Shown here: in pieces, positions 3,001 to 6,000 of the stretch | Numbering within the stretch: position 1 is the first letter of the stretch | Layout of the letters: the number at the start of each line of letters is the position of its first letter | Virus record (IMG/VR): IMGVR_UViG_2681813225_000001 | Location: 1 to 11,378 of that record | DNA from: a virus | Lineage: Duplodnaviria; Heunggongvirae; Uroviricota; Caudoviricetes | Reading direction: 5' to 3' (one strand) | Length of the DNA stretch: 11,378 nt | Program-made: the position numbers

Positions 3001-6000
3001 TGCGGCTCAGGACATATTCTTCCGAGTTGGTGAATTTGATGCCTTTTATCAACGAACCGTCACCAAGTAGAGCCCCAATAACCCAACCATCAAGGGGAAT
3101 ATTTTTACCAAAGTCTCCGGTCAAGGATGGCACTCTTATTCTTCCCTGATAACGTGTTTTTTGTAGTATCCCAGCCAGCGCATCAGTATCAACAACGCGT
3201 TTACCAGTAAATCTTGATGATGAAATTTCCCATAAGTGGTTGTCGGCACATTTCACGCTACGTCCGTCTTCAAAGGTGACTAAATATGTGAATTTCTTCC
3301 CTTGTGGGAAGACGCCAATTACCTCCGAAGGAAGCCCGTCTATTGACGCGATGCGATCGCCAATTTTGACTTCTCCGTGAGTAGTCCAGGTGCCATCTGC
3401 AAGTAAAATCCCTTCGCTTAGCGCCATTGCTTTCCCCATACCAGGACGAGCAGCGATTATCACCAGGTCTTCCGCGTTCATCCCTCCGGTGATGGCATCA
3501 AGTTCTTCGATTCCGGTCTTCAGGGTATCTGACTCTTCTCCGTTCCTCAGACGCCTGTCAAGCGTGTCAGTGTAGTCAGTGATGATTTCCCCTAACCGTA
3601 CAGGTTTAACCTCGTCACGGGGCTTTCTGATGGCTGAAAGACGCTTTACAAGTTCATCCATCGCCTGACTCGATGCGTCGATGGTTCCGCTCTGAATTGG
3701 TTCACGCATTTCATCCATGATTTCCAGCACCAGACGGCGGTGATAGTTATCCGCGACCATTCCGGCATATCCCTTCAGGTTTGCGGCACTCGGGCAGTTT
3801 TTGCTGGTCATCAGGATTGACGTGAAATGCTCCTCTCCGCACTCCTCGGCAACCATCAGCGCGTCGATTAGGTTTCTGTTTCGCGCCTGCTTACGGATAA
3901 CCTCGAAGGCTTTCCGGTAGAGCGGAATTGAAAACGCCTCCGGCTCCAGCGTTGCCAGAACGTCGCTGGCAGTTGGCGTTAATCCACCAATCAGCAGGCC
4001 ACCGATAACGCTCGCTTCGATATCCTGTCTCATGCAATCCCCCTGTCTGCAAACTTCCCTTCCCGGACTCCCGTTAACGAGTCTTCTCTCAGCAGGTAAT
4101 CAAAATCTGCCGTCCAGCCCGTGTCGTTGTCTCCGAAGTAAAACGGCTTGGCCTGATGTACAAACGCCCTGACATACGCTCTGAAACCGTCCACGTTTGG
4201 CGTTTTCAGTTGCGGGATGATTTTCTTCAGGCGGCGTTTGCGTTTCTCGTTGACCGCAACAGCGTGTGGAAGTCTGTCACCGACTTCGGTGTTGTAGGCG
4301 TTCAGGAAGGATTCGTAGTCGATTCGTTCTGCCTTGCGACGTTCAGGTTTAACCTGCCCATCGCCTCCCCCATTGGGGGGTAGGGGGGTATTATTTATAT
4401 TCTTGTTAATACCTTCTTGTTCATGATGTGCGGTTGTTTGTGCGGCTTCATGTGCGCTTTCATGTGCGGCATGTACTCTGAAAGCCGCGCCATTGCTGGC
4501 TTCGTCATGTGCGGCATCATGTGCGGTTGTTTGTGCGGCTTCATGTGCGGGTGAATCGTCCATTTTTTGAGCATATTCATGGTAATTTGTGATGGTAATC
4601 ACACGACCTTTTTGCTTCTCTCCATCAATGGTGATCATCCCCTCTTTCACAAAAACCTGAAGCATCCGCTCAACCTGATCGCGGCTTGCTGGCTTGCCAT
4701 GCCTGTCGCATAACTGAAGACCTAAATCAGCTGCTGTCACAACCAGTTGACCGGGTTGCAGATGCCATTCATGACCTTTGAAATTCGCTTTGTATGGCTT
4801 TCTGGCGGCATTCAGGAGAAGGTTTTCCCACAGGGTGCGAAGATAAACATCTTTCGCCCATGACTGTTTCAGAATGCTCCGGTACAACGGAATGTAACCA
4901 GTTTTCTGGTTCTCCATCCTGTTGCTCCTGCGCTCGTGTGCGGCGCTGAAATCGTAGATTTTTGCTGTATTGCTCATAACTACCTGCCTTGACGAAAGAC
5001 CTTAAGAACATCGTTAAACTGACTTACGGATATGTCTTCTTTGAGCAGCTTTTCCAGAAATGCGTTTGGAATGGACGTATATCCCTCCTCTTTTGGTAGA
5101 GACGGGAGCAACGCCCTCGCCTCAGCCTTCAGAAGCTCAGTTCTGGCAACTTTCACAAAAGAGATTTGAGTTCTTTCATCAATGGAACGAAGGAAGCGCA
5201 AACGCTTAGCTTCTTTGTGTGTATCAGGTGGATTAAAGCCTTTGTTTCGCATATAATTACCTCGTTGGATGTTGTTAAAATTCCATTTGTATTTGATCAG
5301 AACGCTCGGTCTTGCACACCGGGCGTTTTTTATTGGTGAGTCCATCAAGCGCATACTTAAAAGCCCTGCTAATCGGACTGATGTCTGATGCCATTCCGAA
5401 AGCACACAGGACCGAAGCAATAAACCTCCAGTCCGTTCTGCTTATCTTCGATTCATGACAGCCAATCATCTTTGCCAGACCGCGCTGGGTAAGCGTTGAC
5501 AGGTTGATGAGTAAATCTGTTTCTGCGCGATCAACGTCACGCTGGGATAGTTTGCTGTAACTTGTTCGTTCCATTTCTTAAGATTTCCAATAGTGAATAG
5601 TTAGTTGAAAGGTATGCGTGGAAACGCATATGGCCTTAGTTGGTCAGATATCTTGGGACTCGCTTTTCAGCGACGTAGGACGAATGTCCGTTGTTACAAA
5701 GAGCGGCTCCGCTTATTAAGCGGCTTTGTGCTCCGGCGGGAACACGTCATCAAGACTTACTTTTGCGCCTAACTTGTTTAGACACGCAACAAGAGCACGG
5801 CATGTTTTAAGGTCTGGGAAGCGACGACCAGATTCCCAATGTCCGATAGCTCCCTGTGTGCATCCAACTGCCTTAGCAAGTGTTGTTTGAGAGATATTCA
5901 GTGACTCTCGATATTTTCGTAGGTTGCTCATATGCCCTCCATAGTAACCACGAATAAAAAAATACAATATGTACTTCTCAAATACAAGTAAAAATACACA

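Follow-up and report, generated by a model that had tools for sequence, protein, structure and literature searches.

Conserved 12-bp repeats within an O-like initiator gene mark a probable replication origin of a Stx2a-converting prophage

Does a run of short repeats inside a phage gene serve the DNA, as a replication origin, or the protein, as a low-complexity linker? This question is raised by the O-like replication initiator gene in an 11,378-nucleotide (nt) stretch of viral DNA (positions 1 to 11,378 of IMG/VR record IMGVR_UViG_2681813225_000001; hereafter the window), which is the early-right region of a lambdoid prophage of the Shiga toxin 2a (Stx2a)-converting type. The O region was 99.2-99.3% identical to 48 Stx2a phage records, for example LC616031, and database records annotate the initiator only as "replication protein". 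By comparison with homologous loci, the repeats proved to be under DNA-level selection, to co-vary with the N-terminal domain of the initiator and to be kept in a conserved architecture. We consider it quite probable, on these comparative grounds, that positions 4367-4551 of the window, which lie within the gene for the prophage's own initiator, function as its replication origin.

The repeats are eight 12-base-pair (bp) units with the core CCGCACA on the coding strand, seven of them exact and one with a single mismatch. They occupy positions 4423-4551, or codons 143-185 of 315, between the regions encoding the N- and C-terminal domains (Table 1). All units have the same orientation, abut one another and are read in frame as xCC GCA CAx xxx; on the + strand, the exact cores appear as TGTGCGG and the mismatched one as TGTGCGC. 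Cores follow one another at exactly 12 bp inside a group of four, and the last core of one array is separated by 45 bp from the first core of the next, leaving a spacer of 33 bp. Units 6-8 duplicate units 1-3 at an offset of 93 bp. No dyad or inverted repeat was found within units or between adjacent units in a search with 6-nt seeds. In the window as a whole, we counted eight exact core copies, compared with 1.48 expected; none of 200 shuffles reached eight, and seven of the eight copies fell inside 4427-4550. The original prediction of eight 12-bp repeats in two clusters of four, next to an AT-rich tract, was thus confirmed at the sequence level, and the low-complexity peptide that it quoted (AHEAAQTTAHDAAHDEASNGAAFRVHAAHESAHEAAQTTAH) is the exact product of the open reading frame (ORF) at 4030..4977 on the - strand.

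The original prediction had also named iterons elsewhere as evidence against itself. In a complete 65-kb phage genome with 99% identity, the core occurred 19 times, compared with about 7.7 copies expected from base composition. Seven of these copies lay in the array, and outside it we found no second motif cluster and at most one copy per 150 bp. A ninth CCGCACA in the window (4937-4943), close to the 5' end of the O-like gene and with strand and frame as in the arrays, was considered as an autoregulatory site and rejected because it was absent in all diverged homologs and because a single stray copy is within chance expectation.

We collected loci with the same N-terminal domain from two annotated phages (of Klebsiella and Yersinia), 14 enterobacterial genomes, IMG/VR contigs and metagenome contigs. 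The first set comprised 175 loci, which yielded 137 distinct linker DNAs; a second set of 112 new distinct sequences, fetched afterwards with three queries from the His class described below, brought the total to 249. From these homologs, 19 representatives had <90% N-domain identity to one another, and the codon comparisons that follow refer to them. In its frame xCC-GCA-CAx, the core takes in the last base of one codon, the complete Ala codon that follows, with its four-fold degenerate third base, and two bases of a His/Gln codon. At four-fold sites in the N-terminal domain, sequence pairs were 40% (695/1742) to 45% identical, and Ala codons in this domain were scattered over all four possibilities. 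By contrast, the Ala codon of the iterons was GCA in 73 out of 74 cases in one class of sequences and GCG in 32 out of 32 in the other. The residue preceding this Ala varied (P, A, T, S, G or C), and its codon ended in CC (63 cases) or GC (11 cases). Because the core is fixed at synonymous as well as amino-acid-changing positions, compared with 40% identity at synonymous sites of the N-terminal domain, selection acts on the DNA. The sequence comparison thus identifies a DNA word as the conserved object, with the Ala/His-rich peptide as its by-product.

These results bear directly on the possibility that the repeats are a His/Ala linker generated by slippage, perhaps with a role at the protein level such as metal binding, and have no function in cis as DNA. 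Such a linker would account for the biased composition of the stretch and for length differences between close relatives, but not for a synonymous third base that is fixed to 99-100% within each class, nor for a preceding residue that changes while the last two bases of its codon do not. Two further points speak against it: copies of the gene that have lost the reading frame retain the DNA repeat, and a synonymous site changes in all units of an array at once, in concert with a residue of the DNA-binding domain, as described next. We regard a purely peptide-level explanation as highly improbable.

Within one genome, all units share the same base at position 5 of the core, which is a synonymous site. 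In the first set, sequences with Asp at initiator residue 100 (n=119) had 890 units with A and five with G at this base, and sequences with His at residue 100 (n=18) had no A units and 115 G units. We then tested the rule as a prediction on the 112 new sequences: 88 combined His with G and 24 combined Asp with A, and the deviations were rare single GCT units only. Taking both sets together, Asp100 was paired with CCGCACA and His100 with CCGCGCA in 249 out of 249 distinct sequences (137 + 112), with no exception. The frame-shifted entries also fitted this rule, since their arrays are translated into Pro-His when the protein is of the Asp class and into Pro-Arg when it is of the His class. The sole entry with Tyr at residue 100 reads its array as Pro-Arg.

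Only two columns of the protein alignment separated the two classes perfectly, namely residue 82 (Ala versus Ser/Thr) and residue 100. In a neighbour-joining tree built without these two columns, the His class was monophyletic in 4 out of 200 bootstraps; one Asp sequence was nested among His sequences, and one His sequence grouped with an Asp sequence. This pattern suggests repeated switches between Asp and His, or recombination that maintained the coupling. An AlphaFold2 model of the N-terminal domain (mean predicted local distance difference test score, 80.9) showed a winged helix, with helix a2 at residues 62-68, recognition helix a3 at 79-91 and a beta wing at 95-109 in domain numbering. 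In this model, the recognition helix has residue 100 in second place, and the helix before it starts with residue 82. The co-variation, together with the modelled position in the helix, is the strongest non-experimental evidence that the N-terminal domain reads the units. That the initiator binds its own coding sequence is strongly implied, because the core is conserved at synonymous sites and its fifth base co-varies with a residue of the predicted recognition helix.

The Pfam model Phage_rep_O (PF04492) covers amino acids (aa) 20-132 of the initiator (E = 3.6e-15; 56.7 bits, compared with a cutoff of 28.7 bits), and lambda O and HK97 gp54 match the same model. The N-terminal peptide of the initiator, MSNTAKIYDF, resembles MTNTAKILNF of lambda O and is also kept across homologs. 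For this reason, we prefer ATG 4977 as the likelier start codon. The alternative start at internal Met21 (ATG 4917), which is used in the JEP4 annotation and is preceded by a good AGGAG, was set aside because the 20 residues upstream of it are conserved with lambda O and the homologs. A Foldseek search with the N-domain model returned only generic winged-helix DNA binders (CodY, RosR, MarR and TubR), none with E <= 0.001, and a sequence search of the PDB found no relative of the initiator; no template for the DNA contacts could therefore be derived. A search for protein homologs of the N-terminal domain returned mostly partial or frame-shifted entries, which we used in the alignment for the structure model and which added little diversity.

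Many database entries for the initiator are labelled partial and end at the repeats. The reading frame of entries P0018, P0020, P0022, P0030 and P0041 breaks at an A-run (CAAAAAATG) or a C-run that lies shortly before the array or within it, corresponding to approximately 4550-4575 in the window; the repeats are then translated as PHI.. or PRI.., and a stop is reached in the AT-rich tract. These entries are probably homopolymer sequencing errors or pseudogenes.

Counting the repeats in related prophages, as had been proposed, revealed two arrays with a 12-bp period in nearly all of the 137 distinct sequences of the first set. The layout was 4+4 (array A + array B) in 78 of them, 3+3 in 30, 3+4 in nine and 5+4 in one; a further 11 had 4+4 plus an extra, out-of-phase core-like match in the spacer, and three had one array of three units. 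In the later set, 3+3, 3+4 and 4+4 predominated. Across all 249 distinct homologs, arrays were nearly always present with 3-5 units each, and about nine out of ten sequences had the 12-bp period and the 45-bp offset.

The number of whole units differs between relatives with 98% identity. Metagenome loci L122-L125 have a single array of three units and lack 31 codons, with an N-terminal domain that is 98% identical; this layout is consistent with a deletion between the 93-bp direct repeats. Since whole units are gained and lost, and 31 residues are missing in these loci, the encoded segment tolerates changes in length and is linker-like. The earlier suggestion that the repeats double as a His/Ala-rich linker agrees with these observations.

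By analogy with known O proteins, the N-terminal winged-helix domain would recognise the asymmetric 12-bp units. Since arrays often have an odd number of units, and the units lack a dyad, binding would be head-to-tail, probably with one protomer per 12 bp. The protomers would sit side by side, four per array, on two arrays offset by 45 bp around the central element of the spacer. A different arrangement would also make the locus an origin: O dimers might occupy adjacent pairs of units, giving four 24-bp iterons comparable to lambda's four, or might bridge a unit of array A and a unit of array B. Dimers have been reported for the lambda-type O proteins of lambda, P27 and 933W (PMC7466680), eight units equal four pairs, and the two arrays are usually of equal size (4+4 or 3+3). 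Equal numbers can, however, stem from the 93-bp duplication that relates the arrays, and the frequent odd-numbered arrays (3+3, 3+4 and 5+4) are a poor fit to obligatory adjacent pairs, as is the uniform direction of units that have no dyad. We therefore regard binding by dimers as unlikely.

The AT-rich tract, a putative DNA-unwinding element, was attached to the last unit in 19 out of 19 diverged representatives, with a GC content of 0.17-0.28. In the window, its lowest 30-nt GC content was 0.17, equal to the minimum of the lambda AT-rich tract; 40-nt windows across 4380-4439 had a GC content of 0.33-0.35, compared with about 0.5-0.6 in the array. A 13-bp palindrome, CCCCCA-T-TGGGGG, directly follows the tract and may be part of the origin. 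HK97 has CCCCC-TAAC-GGGGG at the equivalent position, and lambda has TCAGAG-N14-CTCTGA at a comparable one. In the spacer between the arrays, the conserved central element reads CCGCGCC on the + strand, an inverted, degenerate iteron-like word that lies 23 and 22 bp from the flanking cores, and its four-fold sites (GGC, GCG) are conserved in both specificity classes. No obvious DnaA-box or IHF-like sequences were seen, although these were looked for by eye only. A comparison of the origin region with Rfam found no RNA family.

The position of the AT-rich tract is also relevant to a possible regulatory function, in which the arrays would bind the initiator mainly for control (autoregulation, titration or handcuffing, or incompatibility) and replication would start elsewhere in the phage. 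Iteron titration and handcuffing have been proposed for plasmids containing the lambda origin (PMC3349717), and binding within its own gene could block transcription or translation. The constant attachment of the tract to the last unit, followed by the palindrome as in the lambda origin, argues against this explanation, as do the lack of a second motif cluster in the 65-kb genome and a position equal to that of the experimentally defined lambda origin. We consider a mainly regulatory role improbable.

If the locus is an origin, as we prefer, the further steps would follow those of lambda and P22. A nucleoprotein complex analogous to the O-some would stress and open the adjoining AT-rich tract. 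The C-terminal domain, of the HK97 gp54 / P22 gp18 type, would then bring in the phage DnaB-like helicase encoded just downstream, and rightward transcription from pR would activate the process. Binding, unwinding, helicase recruitment and transcriptional activation are all inferred from lambda and P22. With the sites held in the frame xCC-GCA-CAx, an Ala-His/Gln-rich stretch of variable length is forced upon the protein; this stretch would serve as a flexible linker between its two domains.

A more specific reading, which we put forward only tentatively and as a whole, joins three ideas. This O lineage may have left the lambda mode, in which a dimer binds a palindrome, with monomers that polymerise head-to-tail on abutting 12-bp sites. 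Asp100 or His100 (possibly also Tyr) may read A or G at core base 5, creating exclusive specificity classes that were switched more than once. Finally, the inverted pseudo-iteron midway between the arrays may have a function of its own, as a third element around which the complex is organised, for instance by offering a nucleation or bend point.

Several observations weigh against the interpretation of the locus as an origin bound by its own initiator, or limit it. Both origin function and binding by this type of O rest on comparison throughout. Linkage and shared ancestry could account for part of the co-variation, since the neighbour-joining tree is based on just 112 columns, and the units may owe some of their uniformity to gene conversion. 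A symmetric, lambda-like O dimer would be expected to bind a dyad, which the units lack, so that the stoichiometry and mode of binding proposed here are guesses. The single array in L122-L125 may mean that the bipartite layout is not essential, or that these copies are defective or misassembled.

How closely does the locus follow known origins? It has a Phage_rep_O N-terminal domain, repeats within its own gene, an AT-rich tract downstream, a repeat that is specific to the N-terminal domain and inherited with it, and a C-terminal domain whose kind goes with that of the helicase or loader, all of which characterise intragenic lambdoid origins. The features of the strict lambda origin (as in lambda, 434 and 933W), namely dyad-symmetric, spaced iterons of 18-19 bp and a P-type loader as partner, were not found. 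The window origin is thus very probably an intragenic lambdoid origin of the O / gene 18 type rather than a strict lambda origin. The claim that the lambda arrangement is reproduced here therefore held for the order of N-terminal domain, repeats, AT-rich tract and C-terminal domain, but not for the repeats themselves, which are 12-bp direct repeats without dyad. An intragenic arrangement is ordinary and expected; 12-bp repeats in one direction are unusually short.

In lambda, as in the window, a PF04492 initiator has its origin between the regions coding for its N- and C-terminal domains, in the order iterons, AT-rich tract, palindrome and C-terminal domain. The lambda origin comprises four iterons (ITN1-4) and a 38-bp AT-rich tract; in the lambda record, iterons 1-4 lie at O codons 117-145, followed by the tract, and the C-terminal domain begins at SSENSGESSD. 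The lambda iterons are 18-19 bp long and dyad-symmetric (TCCCTC-N5-GAGGGA), with spacers between them and starts 20-24 bp apart. By contrast, the window units are asymmetric 12-mers that abut one another, and their two arrays, 45 bp apart, flank a conserved central element. The N-terminal domains of the two proteins are barely alignable pairwise (32% over the first 69 aa, E = 0.004), and the C-terminal domain type of the window goes together with a DnaB-like helicase of the phage instead of a P loader.

At the DNA level, HK97, ST104 and mEp213 are 95-97% identical to the window in the C-terminal domain, the distal part of the AT-rich tract, the C5/G5 palindrome and the DnaB-like helicase that follows. 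Compared with P22 gene 18 and HK97 gp54, however, the N-terminal domain and iterons of the window are unrelated in sequence: HK97 has two 17-bp dyads of the type TTAGC-N7-GCTAA, and P22 gene 18 is reported to have four repeats of approximately 20 bp (PMC8022706). Phage L, a lambdoid phage with a DnaB-type helicase, also has short direct repeats of about one helical turn inside its O/gp18-like gene. There, six imprecise 11-bp direct repeats in gene 18 (TGTCCAACGGA) have been proposed as the origin by inference only (PMC8022706). The repeat sequence and the initiator lineage differ from those of the window, and a bipartite layout, a fixed offset or co-variation were not described for that phage. 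The same study formulated the general rule that distantly related initiators have different iterons, each binding those within its own gene (PMC8022706).

Among Shiga toxin phages, 933W and P27 are of the lambda type in their six iterons and their O/P proteins, which have been studied by electrophoretic mobility shift assays and footprinting; their origin also lies inside O, and iteron number varies and lengthens O (PMC7466680). Stx2a phages of the window type have a different N-domain/iteron module and a helicase instead of P. TubR-tubC is comparable only by analogy: there, blocks of direct repeats are bound cooperatively by a small winged-helix protein, and bent or ring-like complexes form (PMC6009700). 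That system serves plasmid segregation rather than replication and has no sequence relationship to the initiator, its match being a generic one of fold (E ~0.06). In the literature we searched, this iteron type was not described for Stx or lambdoid phages; we found only work on lambda-type origins and the note on phage L.

Similarity along the gene changed partners within the AT-rich tract. Over 4394-4930 (N-terminal domain and iterons), the window was 76-81% similar to the Klebsiella and Yersinia phages, which continue into a lambda-type C-terminal domain and a P loader. Over 4030-4406 (C-terminal domain), it was 95-97% identical at the nucleotide level to HK97, ST104, mEp213 and others, in which a DnaB-like helicase gene then follows. 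The two stretches overlap by 13 bp inside the AT-rich tract, placing a mosaic junction there. In the window, JEP4 and L016, the same N-terminal domain and iterons are joined to a gp18-type C-terminal domain with a DnaB-like helicase, and among the homologs the N-domain/iteron module is joined to at least three C-domain types. Since different segments resemble different phages, the sequence comparison indicates two exchangeable modules: the N-terminal domain with its iterons, and the C-terminal domain with its helicase or loader. This two-module logic has already been described for lambdoid phages.

The replication module was present in 284 out of 5,426 complete E. coli genomes and in 48 Stx2a-converting phage records. 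When a Stx prophage replicates after induction, its toxin genes are amplified, which makes the origin and its specificity determinant relevant to Shiga toxin output. The Stx phages that have been studied (933W and P27) use lambda-type O and P proteins, and the module of this O variant with a DnaB-like helicase is without experimental description in the literature searched. The comparison yields a testable recognition rule, Asp100 with A and His100 with G, and natural variants with 3 to 9 units offer material for dissecting the number of iterons needed by the O-some. In conceptual terms, the locus adds little to what textbooks say of lambdoid origins; its neat features are the recognition rule and the bipartite geometry.

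Table 1. Positions of the origin elements, the initiator and the neighbouring genes in the window
Feature	Position	Strand	Basis or remarks
DnaB-like replicative helicase gene, 797 aa	1640..4033	-	Pfam DnaB, DnaB_C, LAGLIDADG_3, Hint
Intein interrupting the helicase, 339 aa	2414..3430	-	Alignment to the intein-less 458-aa JEP4 helicase
O-like replication initiator gene, 315 aa	4030..4977	-	ORF and translation; Pfam Phage_rep_O
C-terminal domain, HK97 gp54 / P22 gp18 type	4030..4386	-	95-97% nt identity over 4030-4406
Palindrome, 13 bp	4367..4379		Directly after the AT-rich tract
AT-rich tract, 36 bp, putative DNA-unwinding element	4387..4422	-	GC 0.22; encodes HEQEGINKNINN
Iteron array B, four abutting 12-bp units	4423..4470	-	Cores (+ strand) at 4427, 4439, 4451 (GCGCACA, one mismatch), 4463
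Spacer between arrays, 33 bp	4471..4503	-	Contains the conserved central element
Central element CCAGCAATGGCGCGG (= CCAGYAAYGGCGCGG)	4485-4499		In the spacer
Iteron array A, four abutting 12-bp units	4504..4551	-	Cores (+ strand) at 4508, 4520, 4532, 4544
N-terminal winged-helix DNA-binding domain, aa 21-140	4558..4917	-	AlphaFold2 model
Asp100 codon (residue 80, domain numbering), candidate specificity residue	4678..4680	-	Co-variation and model
Small ORF		-	Listed between cII and the O-like gene
cII gene	5275..5574	-	
cI-type repressor gene	6001..6702	+	
Lambda cIII thermoregulator element	9834..9892	+	Rfam RF01804, 88.5 bits

The genes around the initiator fit a lambdoid phage (Table 1). 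The match to the lambda cIII thermoregulator is expected because that part of the window is a lambdoid early-left region. The helicase gene overlaps the stop codon of the initiator gene, and its product is the presumed partner recruited to the origin. Because this helicase is interrupted by an intein, replication from the origin would depend on protein splicing. The intein sits in the Walker A P-loop, between GMGK and T, and carries a LAGLIDADG homing endonuclease. Its first residue is Ala, and it ends in HN followed by Thr; these termini presumably resemble those of class 3 inteins. An insert with at least 99% identity was present in 51 phage records, almost all of them from Stx2a-converting phages.

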